Of a DNA stretch of 20,000 bases, positions 5,981-17,364 are shown piece after piece. The number at the start of each line of letters is the position of its first letter. Position 1 is the first letter of the stretch. Made by a program: the position numbers and the translations under genes. This stretch comes from an uncultured virus (IMG/VR IMGVR_UViG_3300004093_000014). Its lineage: Duplodnaviria > Heunggongvirae > Uroviricota > Caudoviricetes. Under the pieces are notes generated by a model, which saw nothing but the letters and a program-made list of their open reading frames with translations, was not told where the DNA came from and ran no database searches. The stretch is taken from IMG/VR virus record IMGVR_UViG_3300004093_000014, one strand, 5' to 3'.

Positions 5981-6222
5981 GCCGGGATGGCCTCAAGCGT
6001 CGGGCGCTCGATACCGGCGGGCCAGCTGAGATGAGCGGGCCAGTTTTGCGAGAAGAACAGCATCGCGCTCTCGTACCGACCGAGGAAAAGGTCTCGGCCG
6101 CCTTCGAGCGCGTCCAGCTTGTTCGTGTCCTGGAAGAGCCGCCAGCTAACGGTGGTGCGCTCCAATCCGAGCGCATCGCCGTACAAGCCGGCAAGTCTGA
6201 GGATCTTTTCGCGTCCAGTCAT
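5977..6222 (-). CDS. Cro-like transcriptional regulator
   Basis: 81 aa, divergent from the cI-like gene; TTVSWRLFQD...FFSQNWP...WP..I.RP pattern typical of alphaproteobacterial phage Cro-like proteins. Confidence 0.8.
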   Translation of the reverse strand: MTGREKILRLAGLYGDALGLERTTVSWRLFQDTNKLDALEGGRDLFLGRYESAMLFFSQNWPAHLSWPAGIERPTLEAIPA

Positions 6223-11106: not shown

Positions 11107-11246
11107 CCGCCTCCGACGCCTACTGGCTCACCGTCGCCATGGTTGGCGCCATCGCAGCGTCCTCTGCCTTCGTTGGCTACCGGCTGGGACGGATTGTCCG
11201 CTCAGCAGGAGCTAAGCATCCCCTAGCCCATAAGAGCGAGGTTTAG
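11103..11246 (+). CDS. Small membrane protein, probably altered at the 3' end by the tnpB insertion
   Basis: MTASDAYWLTVAMVGAIAASSAFVGYRLGRIVRSAGA then reads into the tnpB right end. Confidence 0.5.
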   Translation: MTASDAYWLTVAMVGAIAASSAFVGYRLGRIVRSAGAKHPLAHKSEV

Positions 11247-11340
11247 GCCATGCTCGCGCATAGCCATAGTTCGCGCTTTAACGGGCCCGGAACCGGGACC
11301 CTCCACACGCAGCAACGAGGTGCTTCCCCGCCGAAGTATC
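11193..11340 (-). ncRNA. Putative TnpB omega/reRNA (scaffold overlapping the tnpB 3' end plus flanking guide)
   Basis: Minus strand ...CGTGTGGAGGGTCCCGGTTCCGGGCCCGTTAAAGCGCGAAC...AAACCTCGCTCTTATGGGCTAGGGGATGCTTA|GCTCCTGCTGAGCGGACAAT, with a degenerate IS605 right-end hairpin. Boundaries inferred from known TnpB biology. Confidence 0.55.
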
Positions 11341-12461
11341 TCAATCGCAGCGTTTCTGTCGGCGTGGTCGCGGTGTCCGCAGGAGACGCATTCGAACACC
11401 GCTTGGTTCTTGCGGGATCGCGCGTCGATGGCACCGCAGGCCGAGCAGGTCTGCGAGCTGTAAGCGGCCGGCACGGTGATAACCCGCCCGCCACGTTCCT
11501 CCATTTTGTAGGTCAGGATCGTTTGAAATTGGCGCCAGCTGGCGTTGAGGATCGATCGGTTCAGTCCGGCTTTCTGCCTGACATTATGGCCTGGCTCGGC
11601 GACTGTGCCCCGAGCACTGGTCGTCATGCCGCGCGTGTCCAGGTCCTCCAGAACGGCAACGCCGAAGCGGTCGGCGATGCTGAGCGCGGCCCGGTGGTGG
11701 AAGTCGCGCCGGATACGCGCCTGCCGGCCCTGAAGACGAGCAACACGCTGCTGAGCCTTCCGGCGGCGACGGGATCCACGCTTGCGGCGAGAGACAACGC
11801 GCTGCGCTTTTCGCCGCTGAAGCTCAATCTTGCCCAGGCTGGCCGGCAGCGTCAGCATCTCACCGTTGGAAAGAGCGAGCGTTGTCGCGACACCGCGGTC
11901 AATTCCAACGCTGTCGGCGTGTGGCTCTATCTCGTCCTGCTCAATTTCGCAGACGAAGGAAATGTGCCAGCCAAGGTCACTGAGGCTGACAGTGACGTTT
12001 TTTATGTCGCCTTTGATCTTGCGCGTGTCTCGGAACTTAATCCAACCAATCTTCTGAAGCTTAACCTCAGACCATTTATCATTGAGCTGTCTGACAATGG
12101 CCTCTCTCCCCTGATAGCGGAAGCTATCGTTGACCCCCTTTTTCCGAGGAGTGGGGAAAGAAGCTCTGCCGCTGAAGAAGGCAGAGAAAGCTTCTTCCAA
12201 GTCTCTAAGAGCTTGTTCGAGGCAGGAGCGCTGCACCCCCGCAACCCAAGGATACTCCTTTCTGATCTGGGTTACTTCGATGGATTGGGACGATGCGCTG
12301 ATATTCTTCTTGTGAATGCGCTTGTAATGGCGCCACCAGTCGCGCCTCTGTTCAAGCGCTATGTTATAAATGAAGCGACAAGTCCCGGCGAACTGCCTGA
12401 ACAAGCTTTCCTGCTCGGCGCTCGGGCTCAGTCGAAACCGATATCCACGGTTGATCTTCAT
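11223..12461 (-). CDS. tnpB: IS200/IS605-family RNA-guided nuclease TnpB (412 aa), no tnpA
   Basis: Start reassigned to MKINRGYRFRLSP. GTCRFIYNIAL, RuvC-I GIDRG, RuvC-II LEDL, Zn finger CSAC...CVSC, RuvC-III ADRNAA. Confidence 0.95.
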   Translation of the reverse strand: MKINRGYRFRLSPSAEQESLFRQFAGTCRFIYNIALEQRRDWWRHYKRIHKKNISASSQSIEVTQIRKEYPWVAGVQRSCLEQALRDLEEAFSAFFSGRASFPTPRKKGVNDSFRYQGREAIVRQLNDKWSEVKLQKIGWIKFRDTRKIKGDIKNVTVSLSDLGWHISFVCEIEQDEIEPHADSVGIDRGVATTLALSNGEMLTLPASLGKIELQRRKAQRVVSRRKRGSRRRRKAQQRVARLQGRQARIRRDFHHRAALSIADRFGVAVLEDLDTRGMTTSARGTVAEPGHNVRQKAGLNRSILNASWRQFQTILTYKMEERGGRVITVPAAYSSQTCSACGAIDARSRKNQAVFECVSCGHRDHADRNAAIEILRRGSTSLLRVEGPGSGPVKARTMAMREHGLNLALMG

Positions 12462-12468
12462 GCGGTCA

Positions 12469-12497
12469 ACAATAGCACGCCGCTGGCAGGCCGGCAA
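12469..12497 (-). promoter_or_regulatory. Sigma70-like promoter for leaderless tnpB
   Basis: TTGCCG-N17-TATTGT with an extended -10 TG, 7 nt before the ATG; no Shine-Dalgarno. Confidence 0.6.
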
Positions 12498-12584
12498 AAC
12501 CTCATCACGCATCCGAGGGCCGCCGCAGGAGCGAGGCGGACTTGGCTGCGCTGCCTCATTCGAACTCACCGATAGGAGACTGAG

Positions 12585-13061
12585 ATGACGCTCAACATCC
12601 CGAACCTCGACAAGCTCATCGCGCATCTGGAGGCGCAGCCGGCGGAGCGGATCAATATGGGTTGGTGCCAAGTCAGAACTCGTCACGAGTGCGGCACTGC
12701 GGGCTGCATCATCGGTCACGCTCAACTACTGTTCGGCCTTGAGGGCTTCTTGGATGATCAGTTTGAGGCGATCCTTGGACTAAGTGTCCACCAGCGCCGG
12801 GCGCTCACCATGCCAAGTGGGTGGGATGACGAAAAGACTGGCGTGAAGCGCTACCCCGCCCACCGCGTCATCGCCACCCTCAAGCGCCTCCGCGACCACT
12901 ACCTCGCCACGGGCGAGATCGTCGTGGACTGGGGACCGGAGCCGACCGCTGGCGAGCCCTGGGCCGCCCCGCAGGCTGTCGAACTGAAGGAGCCGGCTCT
13001 CCCGGCAGAGATCACCCAGCTTCTGTCCCTCGCCCCCGCGACCGAAACGTCGGGAGCGTGA
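12585..13061 (+). CDS. Hypothetical phage protein with CGTxxCxxG motif
   Basis: AGGAG RBS; HECGTAGCIIGHA. Confidence 0.8.
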   Translation: MTLNIPNLDKLIAHLEAQPAERINMGWCQVRTRHECGTAGCIIGHAQLLFGLEGFLDDQFEAILGLSVHQRRALTMPSGWDDEKTGVKRYPAHRVIATLKRLRDHYLATGEIVVDWGPEPTAGEPWAAPQAVELKEPALPAEITQLLSLAPATETSGA

Positions 13062-13064
13062 GGG

Positions 13065-13298
13065 ATGGACCGCGCCTTCGTCATGCCTGAGGACGAGTGG
13101 TTCAAGCTCTGCACTCGCGCGTGCCGCGTCCGCCGCAAGGAGCACGGCAACGACCGCGGCTACTGCGAGGAGCACGACGGCATCTGTCCTGAGTGCGCTA
13201 GCGACGCCGCTCGCGCCGTACCCGCGAAATACCGCACCACCGAACAGCGGGCGGCCACCTTCGACCTCCTGCCTGGATTGGAGCCCTCCCATGTCTAA
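13065..13298 (+). CDS. Small Cys-rich protein
   Basis: C-x3-C...C-x6-CPEC; GAGG RBS. Confidence 0.65.
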   Translation: MDRAFVMPEDEWFKLCTRACRVRRKEHGNDRGYCEEHDGICPECASDAARAVPAKYRTTEQRAATFDLLPGLEPSHV

Positions 13299-14502
13299 CC
13301 CGATCACCACCGCTTCCGACCCGCGTGTCGGAGAAGATGTCGGGCGGGAGTGCTGCGTCCCCGATGCTGGCGAACCGTCTTTCGTTCTGCTCGGCCGCGA
13401 TCCGCAGGCGCCGGGCCTCGTCGAGCTATGGGCGCACGAGCGCTCGCGGCTTGAGCCCAACAGCCCGAAACCGGCCATGGCCTGCGAGATTGCCGACCGG
13501 ATGCGGGCCTACAAGCTGGCGAACCCCGATCGTGGGCTTCAAGTCCCCTCTACAGGATCGGAGGAAAAGACGAACGGCGCGGACTGGCTTGATCAGCCTA
13601 TCGGCGGTGAACTGGTCTTCGACGGCATGCGGTTCGGCAAGGGCGTGCCGTTGCGGACCGTGATCAAGGCCGCTCAGCGCTGGCGCAGGGACGCGGTAGC
13701 GGCGTTCAACGAGAAGGTCGAGGCCCGCAGGCCGGCCGAGCACGATCACGTCGTCAGCGCCCGCCGGATCCCCTGGGAGCCCGGCAGTCTCGGCGGCGTG
13801 GATCTGACGTTCGATAGCGGGCTTCGGGTCGCGTTGCCGCTCAGCGCGAGTGAGGCCGCCCCATCCCCTGAAGCAGGAGCGGGTGGGGATCTGGGGGAAC
13901 TGGTCTCGTCGGCCTGGGGTCTACTCCGCGCCTGCGAAGCGGATATGGAGACGCACGACCCGACTGACGCGGATGATGAGCCGGTAGGCGCAAGCGAGAG
14001 CGGACCAACCGCTGTCCAGTTCGGGCACATGCGCCGGCTGCGCAAAGCCTTGCTCGCCTTCAGGGACGGCAAGCTCGTCGCGTCTACAGGATCGGGGGAA
14101 GAGACGAAGGGCGAGCCCTCCGGGCCGGGCTACTCATCAGAGACCACGCCCTCCGGTCGTGGCGCTTCGCGTGAGTATCCCTCTCGCACGGAGCTTGATC
14201 GGCTGAGCGAGGCAGCGTCTCAAGGCGAGTGGACCGTCGAGCGGATGGAGAACGAGGGCGCGTCGCCGGCCGACAAGTTCTTCAGCTACGGCATTGAATG
14301 CGGACCGCACACGATCCTCGACACGCTGAACAGCAGCGGTGGGATGCTGGAGCAGGAGAACCATGAGGACGGCTGCACCGTGTGGGATGAGCAGGCGCGG
14401 CGCGATCTCACGTATCTTGCCGCGCTCGTCAACACTCATCGATCCGGCAAGCTCATTCTCGCCCCGAACGAGGCACTCGACATCGCGAGGGCGGCAGAAT
14501 GA
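13291..14502 (+). CDS. Mosaic multi-module phage protein (C-terminal Ea22/Ead-like module)
   Basis: EPSFVLLGRDPQAPGLVELWA module; repeated STGS.E.T.G linkers; LDRLSEAASQGEW...ARRDLTYLAALVN resembles Ea22-like modules. Confidence 0.75.
   Translation: MSNPITTASDPRVGEDVGRECCVPDAGEPSFVLLGRDPQAPGLVELWAHERSRLEPNSPKPAMACEIADRMRAYKLANPDRGLQVPSTGSEEKTNGADWLDQPIGGELVFDGMRFGKGVPLRTVIKAAQRWRRDAVAAFNEKVEARRPAEHDHVVSARRIPWEPGSLGGVDLTFDSGLRVALPLSASEAAPSPEAGAGGDLGELVSSAWGLLRACEADMETHDPTDADDEPVGASESGPTAVQFGHMRRLRKALLAFRDGKLVASTGSGEETKGEPSGPGYSSETTPSGRGASREYPSRTELDRLSEAASQGEWTVERMENEGASPADKFFSYGIECGPHTILDTLNSSGGMLEQENHEDGCTVWDEQARRDLTYLAALVNTHRSGKLILAPNEALDIARAAE
13549..14113 (+). repeat. 31-bp direct repeat pair (13549-13579 and 14083-14113)
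   Basis: TCTACAGGATCGG[A/G]GGAA[A/G]AGACGAA[C/G]GGCG, 28/31 identical, same reading frame. Confidence 0.9.
14109..14187 (-). repeat. Multi-hairpin intragenic element, copy A (divergent)
   Basis: Minus strand GCGAG AGGGA TACTCA CGC-GAA-GCG CCACG...CGTGG...TGAGTA GCCCGG CCC-GGA-GGG CTCGC CC. Confidence 0.6.
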
Positions 14503-15005
14503 CCGAACATGTTCGGCAGATTGACCGCTGCGGGTGCGCCGTCGCCTGCATGGCGATGATCCGCGGCGTGCCCTATGAGGTCGTGCGCGCCGATGTCGGG
14601 GAGGTTGGGCGCGGTCATGATTTCATGGCCTGGCAAGACTACCTCGCACGGCACGGCTTTGCTGCGCAGATGGCGTGGCACACGGACCAGATTGCTGGGA
14701 AACGGCGAGACCCATGGCCTTTGGCGCCGTGGGCCGATGTACACCTGTGTTGCGTCGATGGCGGACTGGGGGCCGCGTCGCATCTCGTTGTGATGCTCGC
14801 AGACGGCACCGTGCTTGACCCAGCAGCCGACACCGCCCGCAACCTCAAGGACTATCCCAGTGTCGCTTACATGGCTGGCGTCTTCCGCGTCGGCACACAG
14901 CCGCTCAGATCGCCGCCGTCGGGCGCGTTAGCGGGCGAAGCCGAAGGCCGAGACCGTCAGGGCTCGGTTCACGAGCACGCGGCCCCGCAAGGGGCAACGC
15001 CATGA
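14499..15005 (+). CDS. Peptidase C39-like (papain-fold) protein
   Basis: RQIDRCGCAVACMAMI...SHLVVM...VLDP (Cys-His-Asp arrangement); the C-terminal tail is encoded by repeat copy B. Confidence 0.7.
   Translation: MTEHVRQIDRCGCAVACMAMIRGVPYEVVRADVGEVGRGHDFMAWQDYLARHGFAAQMAWHTDQIAGKRRDPWPLAPWADVHLCCVDGGLGAASHLVVMLADGTVLDPAADTARNLKDYPSVAYMAGVFRVGTQPLRSPPSGALAGEAEGRDRQGSVHEHAAPQGATP
14921..15001 (+). repeat. Multi-hairpin intragenic element, copy B
   Basis: GCGTT...CGAA GCC-GAA-GGC CGAGAC...GGCTCG GTTCACGAGCACGCG GCCCC-GCAA-GGGGC AACGC. Confidence 0.75.
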
Positions 15006-15232
15006 CTTCCCCCGCCCCCGATACCGGCCGGACGGCCGCTAGCATCCCCGAGCGCGCTGCTATGCTCTCTCGGGAACACCTGATCCTGCAGATCGGCAAG
15101 GTCATCCAGGATGAGATCCTAGGAGGCTCGGCCTCCGGCAATGTCAGCATGGTCGCCAGGCGCACGGCCGAGCGGATCTTGGACGGCCCCTTCGCTGGCT
15201 GGTCCGCAACTGCGCTGGAGTCCTCGCGATGA
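15002..15232 (+). CDS. Hypothetical phage protein
   Basis: ATGA-coupled; shares N-terminal PD.GRTA and A..IL.GP.A with the next ORF. Confidence 0.65.
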   Translation: MTSPAPDTGRTAASIPERAAMLSREHLILQIGKVIQDEILGGSASGNVSMVARRTAERILDGPFAGWSATALESSR

Positions 15233-15999
15233 ATGGGCCCGATGCCGGCCGGACGGCCGAGGAGATGCGGGAGCAGGTTGCCCGCTTCTGGTGGGATCGG
15301 GTCTGCCCGACCTCCTATGTCGGCCGGTGGAATGAAGCAAAGGAGCACTCAGGCTTCTTCAAGCAACTCGTCAGCGAGACCTACGAGGATGCCGACGCGA
15401 TCCTCTCCGGCCCGCTTGCCCCGATCCTCCAAGAAGCCGCCCACCTCCGCGCCGAGAACGCCAACCTCCGGGATAGGGTGAGGGAAGCAGAGGGAGCAGG
15501 GCGCGACCCTTACGGGTCAGGCTCTCGTCCTTCGGATCAGGCTGCTTCGCATCCTGCCCCTGCGGGCTTCGATCCTTCGCGCTGGGAGCTTAGCGAGGAA
15601 GCGCGCGCCTTCATTCGAGAGATAGATCTAGCGACGGTCCGGCCGGGCGACCCGCGCCTGAGCCAAACCCTTATCGGCCCTGCCGGCCCCGCTGTCGGGC
15701 TGGACGGCTACGGCTCTCAGGCCCGGCCACTCGCGCCGTCCTACGATCCGCCACGCTGCACGGCCACGGGCAACCCCTGCGGGACGGACACGTGCATCGT
15801 CGGGCATGAGTGCCCCGACAGCCGCTGGGGCGGCCGGTGTGCGCACCGCATCGCCAAGCGAGTGGCCGCATTAGGGATCGAAGCCCGTCAGGGCCGAGAC
15901 GAAGGCTCGGCTTGCGAGAGCCCGACCCCGCAAGGGGGGATGCCCATCCCTCTCCCCGACTCCCGATCCGAGAATACAGGAGGACGAGGTGCCCCGTAG
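15229..15999 (+). CDS. Mosaic phage protein containing three multi-hairpin elements
   Basis: Open frame through copies C, D and E; coiled-coil LRAENANLRDRVRE; Cys-rich module CTATGNPCGTDTCIVGHEC. Confidence 0.65.
   Translation: MNGPDAGRTAEEMREQVARFWWDRVCPTSYVGRWNEAKEHSGFFKQLVSETYEDADAILSGPLAPILQEAAHLRAENANLRDRVREAEGAGRDPYGSGSRPSDQAASHPAPAGFDPSRWELSEEARAFIREIDLATVRPGDPRLSQTLIGPAGPAVGLDGYGSQARPLAPSYDPPRCTATGNPCGTDTCIVGHECPDSRWGGRCAHRIAKRVAALGIEARQGRDEGSACESPTPQGGMPIPLPDSRSENTGGRGAP
15499..15582 (-). repeat. Multi-hairpin intragenic element, copy C
   Basis: Minus strand GCGCGA AGGATCGAA GCCC-GCAG-GGGC AGGA TGC-GAA-GCA GCCTGA TCC-GAA-GGA CGAGAGCCTGA CCC-GTAA-GGG TCGCGC CC. Confidence 0.8.
15679..15750 (-). 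repeat. Multi-hairpin intragenic element, copy D (degenerate)
   Basis: Minus strand GGATCGTA GGACGGC...GCCGTCC AGCCCGA; keeps the GGATCG.AG and AGCCCGA blocks. Confidence 0.45.
15874..15945 (+). repeat. Multi-hairpin intragenic element, copy E
   Basis: GGGATCGAA GCCC-GTCA-GGGC CGAGAC GAA GGCTCG GCTT-GCGA-GAGC CCGA CCCC-GCAA-GGGG GGATGCCC. Confidence 0.8.
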
Positions 16000-16177
16000 A
16001 GGTGCGAGCGTCACTCAGGCCGACATCGCGCGCGCGGCGCGGGCACTGCGCTCGGCCGGCGTCGAGAAGGTGCGGATCGTGTTCCGGCCGGAGGGCGTCA
16101 GCGTCGAGGCCGACGACGGCCAACCCAGCGAGCGTGAAAATCGGCTTGCGCAGCGGACTCGGGTGATCGCCCTATGA
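15989..16177 (+). CDS. Probable excisionase / recombination directionality factor
   Basis: MPRRGASVTQADIARAARAL; small basic ORF coupled directly upstream of the integrase. Confidence 0.6.
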   Translation: MPRRGASVTQADIARAARALRSAGVEKVRIVFRPEGVSVEADDGQPSERENRLAQRTRVIAL

Positions 16178-17280
16178 ACGCCATGCCTCGCCCGCGCCCG
16201 CTCCACCTCCGCCACGAGACCACCCGCCACGGCGAGAAGGTCTGGTACGTCCGGCGCGGCGAAGGCCCGCGGATCCGGCTGCGGGAACCGTTCGGCAGCA
16301 AGGCGTTCTGGGCGGAGTACGAGAAGGCCGTCCGCGGTCATGCGCCGGACGCCGAGGCGCGCAAGGCGCAGACGACCGGCTCGCTGGGCTGGCTGATCGA
16401 CAGCTACATGGCGAGCGCCCAGTGGACGACCGAGCTGTCCGCCGCGACCAGGGCGCAGCGTGCCGGCATCCTGAAGGAGACGAAGAAGGCTGCCGGGCAC
16501 GAGGCCGCGGATAGCATCAACAAGCTCTCGATCCAGAAGGGCATGGACAAGCGGGCCGCGCAGCCCCACGGCGCCAACAACTGGCTGAAGACCATGCGGG
16601 GGCTGTTCGGCTGGGCGGTGGCGCTCGACATCGTGCCGGCGGATCCGACGCGGAGCGTGAAGCTCCTGGCCGGCGCCAACGACCGCAACGGTTTCCACAC
16701 GTGGACCGAGGAGGAGGTCGCCCAGTTCGAGGCCCGACACAAGGTCGGCACGCGCGAGCGGCTTGCGCTCGACATCCTGCTCTACACCGGCCTGCGACGC
16801 GGCGATGCCGCCCGCCTCGGGCGGCCGCATGTCCGCAACGGCCTCATCCGCATCATGACCGAGAAGACCGAGCAGGAGGTCACGATCCGGATCCTGCCGC
16901 CGCTGGCCGCATCCATCGCCGCCGCGCCGATCGGCGAGCTGACCTTCATCGCGACCGAGAAGGGGCGGCCGTACACGAAGGAGAGCTTCGGCAACTGGTT
17001 CCGGGACGTGTGCGCCGAGATGGGGCTACCGGGCCGAGCCCATGGGCTGCGCAAGGCCGGCGCGCGCCGAGCCGCCGAGAACGGCGCCACGGAGGCCGAG
17101 CTGAACGCCTGGTTCGGATGGGCGGAAGGTAGCCGGGAGAGCGCGACTTACGTGCGCGGAGCCAACAGAACGAAGCTGGCCGCACGCATTGCCGACCGCT
17201 ATTCTGAGACTTCTGACGCCGCACCACCTATCCCGGTGCGGCGGCGACAGGCAATTTCTTCAACGAAATCAGAGGCTTGA
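16174..17280 (+). CDS. int: Phage tyrosine integrase
   Basis: LLYTGLRRGD (R), TEKT (K), HGLRK (HxxR), FGW, SATY (Y); N-terminal TRHGEKVWYVRR arm-binding region. Confidence 0.95.
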   Translation: MNAMPRPRPLHLRHETTRHGEKVWYVRRGEGPRIRLREPFGSKAFWAEYEKAVRGHAPDAEARKAQTTGSLGWLIDSYMASAQWTTELSAATRAQRAGILKETKKAAGHEAADSINKLSIQKGMDKRAAQPHGANNWLKTMRGLFGWAVALDIVPADPTRSVKLLAGANDRNGFHTWTEEEVAQFEARHKVGTRERLALDILLYTGLRRGDAARLGRPHVRNGLIRIMTEKTEQEVTIRILPPLAASIAAAPIGELTFIATEKGRPYTKESFGNWFRDVCAEMGLPGRAHGLRKAGARRAAENGATEAELNAWFGWAEGSRESATYVRGANRTKLAARIADRYSETSDAAPPIPVRRRQAISSTKSEA

Positions 17281-17288
17281 TTTTGTGA

Positions 17289-17364
17289 TGGCTCCCCGAG
17301 CAGGACTCGAACCTGCGACAAGGCGATTAACAGTCGCCTGCTCTACCAACTGAGCTATCGGGGA
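17289..17364 (-). tRNA. tRNA-Asn (GTT)
   Basis: TCCCCGA TAGCTCAGTTGGTAGAGC AGGCGA CT GTT AA TCGCCT TGTC GCAGG TTCGAGT CCTGC TCGGGGA GCCA; 76 nt with encoded CCA. Confidence 0.98.

Follow-up and report, generated by a model that had tools for sequence, protein, structure and literature searches.

The described systems that come closest to the element reported here are single-strand initiation (ssi) signals such as phiX174 pas, ColE1 ssiA/ssiB, and the G4 origin, with which it shares a length of approximately 80 to 100 nt, a hairpin-based structure, strand specificity, and an intergenic position on the virion strand. The complementary-strand signals of phiX174 and G4 sit after the capsid gene (PMC9865509), and a copy of the element lies directly after the capsid gene in a microvirus (L399). 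ColE1 has one initiation signal per strand (PMC3167613). Among repeated sequences, REP-type repeats are described as short and structured, sometimes in frame in genes, and arranged as dimers with a CCA-like 3′ tail (PMC3733652), and the CUP repeats of the IncN plasmids R46/pKM101 are described as recombining (PMC5371602).

Here, we analyzed a 20,000-nucleotide stretch of DNA from an uncultured Caudoviricetes virus (IMG/VR IMGVR_UViG_3300004093_000014), referred to as the window, for which a preliminary description had listed five related elements, A to E. Two covariance models were used, one seeded with E, B, and 44 IMG/VR copies (C and A being unseeded) and one whose seeds excluded every copy in the window. 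With the first model, A, B, C, and E scored 38, 62.8, 55, and 72.8 bits, the best background in the window being 20 bits, and with the second, 57.9, 58.3, 65.6, and 69.8 bits against a background of ≤17. Four of the five elements are thus members of one family of approximately 80 nt, at the positions first noted, while the fifth, D (15679-15750), was rejected by both models (8.2 bits, E=3.8 with the first; absent at E≤1.5 with the second) and is at most a decayed remnant. A partial match at 6034-6122 (20 and 15 bits) had no closing stem, and a loose downstream pattern was discarded as a family marker, its matches being mostly chance. The family, which had not been recognised as a named one, is real but outside Rfam, with no match in the window or in F; the best overlap, to Hammerhead_II (19.8 bits, E=1.9), was far under the gathering score of 37. 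No published description was found in the literature searched, although older subscription-only papers could mention the element.

The covarying fold consists of a closing stem, an arm with an A·G mismatch and tandem G·A, a four-way junction, a second arm with an A·G mismatch, an optional fourth hairpin, and an unpaired 3′ CC. The covariation claimed earlier was substantiated: 13 of 26 pairs changed on both sides in a MAFFT alignment of 46 copies, a value as high being reached in 0 of 500 shuffles, and two-sided change was seen in 23 of 26 pairs among 104 distinct copies in a model-fitted alignment, which leans toward the model. Single-copy folding energies were unremarkable (20 foldings, z between +0.63 and −1.92); the signal is comparative. 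In A, B, C, and E, the stem feet were directly followed by an unpaired CC or CA, and the near absence of G at positions −1 and −2 (0% and 5% of 170 viral copies) indicates that the 3′ CC stays unpaired.

The loops, first described as GAA/GNRA-type, were mostly GNA triloops and not GNRA tetraloops. Among 1643 hairpins from 195 copies, 281 GNA triloops were counted versus 18 of the complement (background, 96 versus 63 of 4767); GNNA and two-base loops were also seen, together with 11 UNCG and 103 GNRA loops. G-T pairs were rare (32/2598 cells of the 104-copy alignment), and the element strand was stabler than its complement in 70/80 cases with DNA parameters and in 52/80 with RNA parameters. The loop types and fixed G·A mismatches point to ssDNA and not RNA, so that of the structured ssDNA/RNA element originally proposed only the ssDNA half is kept; we infer that the element folds as single-stranded DNA.

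The four copies in the window form two inward-facing pairs, A with B and C with E (Table 1), and the host reading frames stay open through all of them, as reported before. The picture of independent coding palindromes in random orientation that goes with the earlier REP/RPE analogy is not supported; the copies are ordered pairs facing inward around genes. The suggested position at module boundaries was confirmed, in that pairs bracket small genes that vary among related phages. The first cassette involves ORF 13291-14502, which is phrog_34459-like, and ORF 14499-15005, three homologues of which (P0002-P0004) have no element-coded tail; the tail of element B contains the stop codon of ORF 14499 and the start of ORF 15002. 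Inward pairing is the usual layout in tailed phages: of 71 inward neighbours, 67 were ≤1 kb apart, mostly spanning one small gene. The 135 viral neighbour pairs comprised these 71 inward pairs (67 within 1 kb), 39 outward pairs (14), and 25 same-strand pairs (10), while neighbours were on the same strand in 16/16 pairs from bacterial genomes and 9/9 from plasmids. Of 191 viral copies, 65 lacked a 5′-side neighbour within 1 kb. The left copy of a phage cassette does not include the start codon, and the right copy is in antisense orientation. The two ends of a cassette were 67.5% alike (n=53) versus 68.5% between cassettes, and were discarded as terminal inverted repeats since they are no more alike than unrelated copies.

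Table 1. Element copies, cassettes, and adjoining features in the window
Feature	Position	Strand	Description
Outer tail of A	14068..14108	+	Common to L574, where a different left element follows
Element A	14109..14187	-	Left end of cassette 1; stem feet 14187-14111; unpaired CC 14110-14109
Cargo of cassette 1	14188..14924	+	Most of ORF 14499-15005, preceded by the C-terminal domain of ORF 13291-14502
Element B	14925..15002	+	Right end of cassette 1; stem feet 14925-15000
Outer tail of C	15438..15497	+	Last stretch shared with L574 before cassette replacement
Element C	15499..15582	-	Left end of cassette 2; stem feet 15582-15501
Cargo of cassette 2	15583..15867	+	In frame within ORF 15229-15999; contains unsupported segment D
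Element E	15868..15945	+	Right end of cassette 2; stem feet 15868-15943
Putative xis (from its position) and tyrosine integrase	15989..17280	+	Place the region at the end of the early accessory operon

Comparison with one close relative, L574, the single genome used for boundary mapping, showed that the C–E unit is replaced there by 929 bp of element-free DNA. The edges of the unit, 15497 and 15944, are the two CC feet, homology resumes at 15944, and no target duplication was found at the L574 junctions. The outer tail of A is repeated at 13543-13579 with no element after it. Relative to element-free homologues, the native tail of cargo genes is missing at the 5′ foot (L227 versus L025, L201 versus L047), which also holds for the window ORF 14499 relative to P0002-P0004. 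Contigs of four runs over 12600-16600, a form of data that drops rare forms, contained no excision or inversion joints at the cassettes; one run had a joint from 13348 to 14068, with edges as in L574. No cultured relatives of 13000-16200 were found.

The F plasmid, integrative elements, and some single-stranded phages also contain the element, and outside tailed phages its copies occur without a partner, for the most part between genes, and on the strand found in single-stranded form. All 11 element-bearing microvirus records (8 distinct genomes, approximately 4 capsid lineages) had a single copy, located on the strand of the capsid gene; the copies in microviruses, like those in Bradyrhizobium, are not independent, and with approximately 4 lineages p is about 0.125. 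MT839809, a leading-region fragment and not a microvirus, was left out of this count. The element was rejected as the standard gokushovirus or microvirus origin, since none of 79 gokushovirus-like genomes chosen by their capsid protein had it; nor did these genomes have a mini-hairpin cluster in common. F and R100 have two copies each, which precede ssb and the oriT-proximal operon by approximately 470 bp and lie on the strand with ssiD/Frpo, in F the transferred strand. In F, the copies lie just outside Frpo/ssiD (compared by eye, the deposited ssiD ends approximately 90 nt short of the element), and these two Frpo-adjacent sites were the only model matches at 35-70 kb. At loci with ardC, the element was on the ardC template strand in 37/37 cases and within 600 bp upstream in 30; in ICEs, this is presumably the transferred strand. 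Like ssi signals, the copies in microviruses, F, and ardC loci are on the strand that becomes single-stranded, the identity of that strand in ICEs being putative. Microviruses have the element in sense and leading regions have it in antisense orientation, so what these settings share is the strand of single-stranded DNA. Five genomes yielded at least 3 to 14 copies each, beside relaxase, ardC, and other mobile genes.

We give a probability of roughly 0.45 to the reading that the element represents a novel class of single-strand initiation signals, pairs of which delimit swappable cassettes in phages. According to this reading, folds of approximately 80 bases on one strand would mark where copying of exposed single-stranded DNA starts; priming would occur at the 3′ CC foot, and the new strand would be extended across the element in the direction of its 5′ side, in the manner of the G4 origin. 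With two copies facing each other, both strands of the gene between them would be primed, which would mark this gene as a swap unit, new cargo would join at the 5′ foot, and the copies could be inserted at short shared tails by the phage exonuclease and annealing protein (Cas4-like, Sak4). The reader would be a host primase or primosome, no linked enzyme being common to plasmids, ICEs, microviruses, and tailed phages. The phage itself encodes a prim-pol (L573:15486-17930). Strand choice in microviruses, F, and ardC loci, the inward pairing in phages, the replacement of the pair-bounded unit in L574 with edges at the two CC feet, the DNA-like loops and pairs, and the unpaired 3′ CC all speak for priming. 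Rifampicin abolishes early conversion near Frpo1/2 of F (bioRxiv 10.64898/2026.01.09.698686), evidence against a strong primase or PriA site at this place in Escherichia coli. It also counts against priming that a site 3′ of Frpo should shorten the single-stranded life of Frpo, as do the 79 gokushovirus-like genomes without the element, the lack of a model match to the proven signals compared, and the 65 viral copies with no near 5′-side neighbour. A pyrimidine-rich tail was discarded as a general part of the mechanism: it is most pronounced in N-terminal copies, in which it complements the RBS, and the 5 plasmid copies parsed had a purine-rich tail. A bolder version remains doubtful, namely that one undescribed folded-DNA signal read by a conserved bacterial factor would be the complementary-strand origin of some microviruses and of leading regions, including that of F, and that facing pairs in temperate phages would be a PCR-like device for copying out, capturing, and swapping accessory genes, with in-frame start and stop, so that replication origins would make up a gene-cassette system that has no dedicated recombinase.

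The same sharp junctions at both feet, with cargo tails lost at the 5′ foot and outer edges at the CC feet, could be left by a structure-specific nuclease or recombinase acting in trans (of the HUH, tyrosine recombinase, or junction resolvase type) and using the fold as its cut-and-join site, the facing pairs then being cassette ends moved by the enzyme, and the four-way junction flanked by two mismatches would suit such a site in a phage that encodes RusA. The fold would insert into ssDNA or be cleaved there, and strand-specific insertion would yield the same strand rule. Both cutting and joining at the CC foot and strand-specific insertion predict this rule together with the edges, a point against priming. 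The preliminary description had seen no cognate mobilising enzyme, and we found none linked in neighbour clusters or genomic flanks: there was no transposase or HUH among the 13 commonest annotated neighbour clusters (of 22 listed, from 49 loci), no RAYT in these 13 or in 73 genes of the fetched flanks of genomic copies, and the neighbouring integrase is an ordinary phage integrase. In addition, the two ends fold on opposite strands and show no excess of likeness within cassettes (67.5% versus 68.5%), and the fixed place upstream of ssb and ardC suggests function over random insertion. Target duplication was not seen, nor, with less weight, was an excision or inversion joint in the contigs of the four runs. 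We consider such a site rather unlikely.

Distinctly unlikely is a barrier or shield that stalls complementary-strand synthesis or exonucleases, by which leading-region promoters would stay single-stranded and phage resection would be limited, with repair between two facing barriers swapping the cargo in phages. The F copy, approximately 90 nt 3′ of Frpo, would be the first point met by incoming synthesis, the leading region of F has an established stem-loop roadblock, and the 5′-foot junctions fit the stop of a 5′-3′ exonuclease. However, the roadblock that has been mapped, ssp2, lies upstream of yfgB and is matched by neither model, a barrier would be costly on the microvirus virion strand, and the stems are short. 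The template-strand position, 180 to 500 bp upstream of ssb or ardC, and the three Frpo* candidate windows (Samuel et al. 2024) that hold the element whole or partly would fit a single-strand promoter module, either an Frpo helper or a new promoter class, driving early transcription of the 5′-side gene. This is improbable given that the core has approximately 70% G+C and no AT-rich box, that microvirus copies are on the sense strand, and that in phage cassettes the start codon is outside the left copy and the right copy is antisense. Action as RNA (ribozyme, processing signal, or antisense RNA) is the least credible, since some GNRA loops (103/1643), tandem G·A known in RNA too, and the mRNA-strand position in microviruses are set against copies that are sense in some settings and antisense in others, a predominance of GNA triloops and GNYA loops, few G-U pairs, and no Rfam match.

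If the element is an initiation signal, it would link priming of the transferred plasmid strand in the recipient, the second-strand start of microviruses, and the reshuffling of phage accessory genes at precise boundaries. The two copies in F have apparently gone unrecognised. Element-coded peptides explain why low-complexity ends recur in many hypothetical proteins of phages, and they will mislead protein clustering.

Among proven signals, none of those in phiX174, G4, ColE1, or ColIb-P9 (15-55 kb) matched. For ssi signals of the primosome-assembly type, there was no model match in phiX174 or ColE1 (E≤1, E≤2) and the partial likeness in motifs is by eye only; the phiX174 F-G hairpin appears to have a GAA mini-hairpin and a comparable arm, in which a short stem is followed by a purine-G mismatch, two pairs, and tandem GA. 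Unlike these signals, the element has a four-way junction and facing pairs inside coding sequence. It also differs from the G4-type primase site, in that the CTG start is absent and its tails read CCA, CCG, or CCT. With Frpo/ssiD of F it shares the strand and the repeated leading-region block in F and R100, but it lies outside the five known sequences, including the listed ssiD, and is not a long stem with −10/−35 boxes. The element is absent from the ColIb-P9 region (15-55 kb) compared for ssi1-3. In R46, three copies lie in the leading region, opposite to the genes; CUP is by description an ArdK-controlled promoter repeat, whereas the element occurs far outside IncN.

The analogy to REP/RPE palindromes drawn earlier had to be abandoned, as two alignments contained no GTAG/CGTC tag and the copies pair around genes. 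In contrast to REP, RPE, and REPIN sequences, the element is multi-branched and not a single stem, has no RAYT nearby, and is present in few copies per genome, and its partners enclose genes and are not near-identical. MITEs and other transposons with terminal inverted repeats differ in their near-identical ends (here 67.5% alike) and in target duplication, which the L574 junctions do not show. Integron cassettes have one folded attC site each, in direct orientation and served by IntI, whereas here the pairs are inverted and the integrase is an ordinary phage one. Lambdoid boundary sequences and T4 PeSL cassettes mark exchangeable accessory genes, as the element pairs do. Those boundaries are direct repeats or promoters that act by homology, whereas the element is inverted, conserved in structure, and common to plasmids and ssDNA phages.

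The preliminary description had reported five related copies (A to E) of a folded element of about 80 nt. A search pattern derived from E matched 50 IMG/VR loci, nearly all of which contain the complete element, and a covariance model (CM) seeded with E, B, and 44 IMG/VR copies also picked up C (55 bits) and A (38 bits), neither of which had been seeded (background, ≤20). A second CM, built without the window copies, scored A, B, C, and E at 58 to 70 bits. Both models thus support these four as one family; D failed both and was dropped. Single-copy folding energies were ordinary. Rfam gave no match, and no description of the element was found in the literature searched. We conclude that this is a real, widespread single-stranded DNA (ssDNA) element, apparently not previously described and a member of none of the tested families.

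Positions of the element copies and neighboring features (window coordinates unless a locus is named)
Feature	Position	Strand	Remarks
Partial match	6034-6122	-	Core only, 20 and 15 bits, closing stem absent; near the repressor's divergent control region; relic or chance
TnpB gene	11223-12593	-	IS200/IS605 type (phrog_506), inserted opposite to the accessory operon
Tail copy	13543-13579		Copy of A's outer tail, unrelated DNA directly after; possible scar or empty site
A	14109-14187	-	Cassette 1, left
B	14925-15002	+	Cassette 1, right
Shared opening block	15018-15050		33 nt
Shared opening block	15239-15271		33 nt, succeeding gene
C	15499-15582	-	Cassette 2, left
D	15679-15750		Dropped
E	15868-15945	+	Cassette 2, right
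Integrase	16174-17280
tRNA (anticodon GTT)	17292-17364	-	Adjoins integrase; likely attachment site
Unpaired left copy	L574:1296-1390	-	Close relative phage; there the window carries a similar but element-free tail, beside the TnpB insertion
ColE1 blocks	L404:1500-1620	-	By eye, short blocks resembling the first hairpin and second arm, order changed; no model match

A 5-bp stem closes the fold. The first arm consists of three pairs, then an A·G mismatch, then two further pairs and a tandem G·A. The four-way junction carries two small hairpins as well as a second arm, which is interrupted four pairs out by an A·G mismatch. A fourth hairpin is optional, and the 3' CC is unpaired. The covariation suspected earlier was borne out: 13 of the 26 pairs covary in a MAFFT alignment, several columns of which were fixed by the search pattern, and 23 do so when the copies are aligned by model fitting. 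Some copies, including A, have Watson-Crick pairs in place of the tandem G·A. In DNA, GNA loops, two-base loops, and tandem G·A have particularly high stability. Among 1643 perfect hairpins from 195 copies, with overlapping registers counted, GNA triloops outnumbered their complement 281 to 18 (background, 96 to 63); GNRA loops numbered 103, GNYA loops 59, and UNCG loops 11. G-T pairs were rare (32 of 2598 cells), and G is almost absent immediately 5' of the stem, so that the 3' CC stays free.

The window is the rightmost part of a prophage record of 70.7 kb and encodes a Cas4-like exonuclease, SSB, Sak4, RusA, and a repressor, followed by the accessory operon; a primase-helicase with a polymerase/primase domain is encoded to its left, and a chemotaxis gene lies beyond the tRNA at its right end. 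The host is probably an alphaproteobacterium, since one of the accessory proteins has a homologue assigned by name to Methylobacterium. The TnpB insertion was not seen in the corresponding region of L574, which, at the gene start carrying the 33-nt block, resembles a recombinant hybrid of both window versions.

Both window cassettes are inward-facing pairs. Across 130 viral loci, 71 of 135 distinct neighbor pairs faced inward, 67 of them ≤1 kb apart (median gap, 325); of the remainder, 39 faced outward and 25 shared a strand (14 and 10, respectively, within 1 kb). Additional loci gave 21, 11, and 11 pairs, respectively (13, 5, and 3 within 1 kb). In a sample chosen by integrase only, 4 of 80 loci carried the element, every one with an inward pair (one on a contig already counted), and in two cultured phages the paired layout likewise adjoined xis/int. 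Of the 71 inward pairs, 51 had a single ORF covering both copies, and 54 were crossed by a stop-free frame (24 expected). A start codon was often found close to the outer side of the left copy (39 within 80 nt), and a stop codon close to the outer side of the right copy (56 within 60 nt). Of 40 cassettes that could be parsed in full, 33 had left and right copies in complementary codon phases, which suggests that the ends come in two subtypes and that these can serve genes of either direction. The cargo was diverse, and paired copies resembled one another no more closely than unrelated copies did. Two AT-rich phage fragments (L179 and L237) carried a single copy upstream of the terminase small subunit gene.

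Element-free homologues of cargo genes have their own tails, which in carriers are replaced at the element's 5' foot, the stem end bordering the cargo. In locus L176 one slot held an element-bracketed gene; in L194 and L222 the genes in that slot were unrelated and element-free. In L574, whose integrase is 99% identical to that of the window, similarity ended at 15497 and began again at 15944. These positions are the outer feet of C and E, and L574 has 929 bp of element-free DNA in between. The tail of A was retained there, but after it came another left copy and a cargo of 235 bp, both different from those in the window. This comparison concerns one relative and carries no information on which arrangement came first. 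The foremost alternative reading of the element, as a site that is cut and joined, is rather unlikely.

Scanning bacterial genomes with a pattern yielded 122 loci (estimated total, about 560), and BLAST matched 582 plasmid records, 398 of them conjugative. Here neighboring copies always shared a strand (16/16 genomic and 9/9 plasmid pairs), and genes flanking non-phage copies included those for relaxases, VirB10, ParB, and ardC. At ardC loci, many of them related Bradyrhizobium elements, the element lay on the template strand in 37/37 and ≤600 bp upstream in 30. R46 had three copies; F and R100 had two each, placed upstream of ssb and the oriT-proximal operon at a distance of about 470 bp. Compared by eye, the F ssiD sequence (Supplementary file 7 of PMC11541004) shares the element's strand, and about 90 nt separate its end from the element, which follows it; three low-certainty candidates in that paper contain the element, unrecognized there.

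Eleven microvirus records (4 GenBank and 7 IMG/VR; 8 distinct genomes, about four capsid lineages) each had one copy in the sequence examined, always on the capsid-gene strand, which by phiX174 biology is the packaged strand. An ORF of 60 codons across the element was absent in 7 of the 11; four had one of 65 to 71 codons. The element is an optional module here, because 0/79 genomes chosen by capsid protein carried it. Five gokushovirus-like loci (L421, L423, L430, L491, and L493) have a conserved intergenic block upstream of a small gene, possibly a common origin or promoter; L400, an element carrier, has it downstream of the element.

Microviruses carry the element in sense orientation, leading regions carry it in antisense, and tailed phages have both; what they share is its place on an exposed DNA strand. 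Comparison of flanking genes found no linked enzyme common to these replicons, so the reader would be a host factor. A barrier function is a poorer explanation than cutting and joining, help to a promoter is poorer again, and function as RNA is highly improbable.

Incoming ssDNA requires priming. In the G4 record annotation, the primer begins at the 3' foot and extends into the hairpins; by analogy, facing copies would prime toward each other, and the product would extend between the two CC feet, which bound the unit exchanged in L574. We tentatively favor, at a probability of about 0.45, an element that acts like a single-strand initiation signal primed from its CC foot, with facing pairs delimiting the swapped unit. 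Two points count against priming: the CM found no copy among proven signals (phiX174, G4, ColE1, and ColIb-P9 15-55 kb), and early conversion near the Frpo sites of F is rifampicin-sensitive, according to 10.64898/2026.01.09.698686. No published parallel was found for use as facing cassette ends. Of the readings considered, action in the manner of a single-strand initiation signal is the likeliest, with a further use as facing cassette ends.
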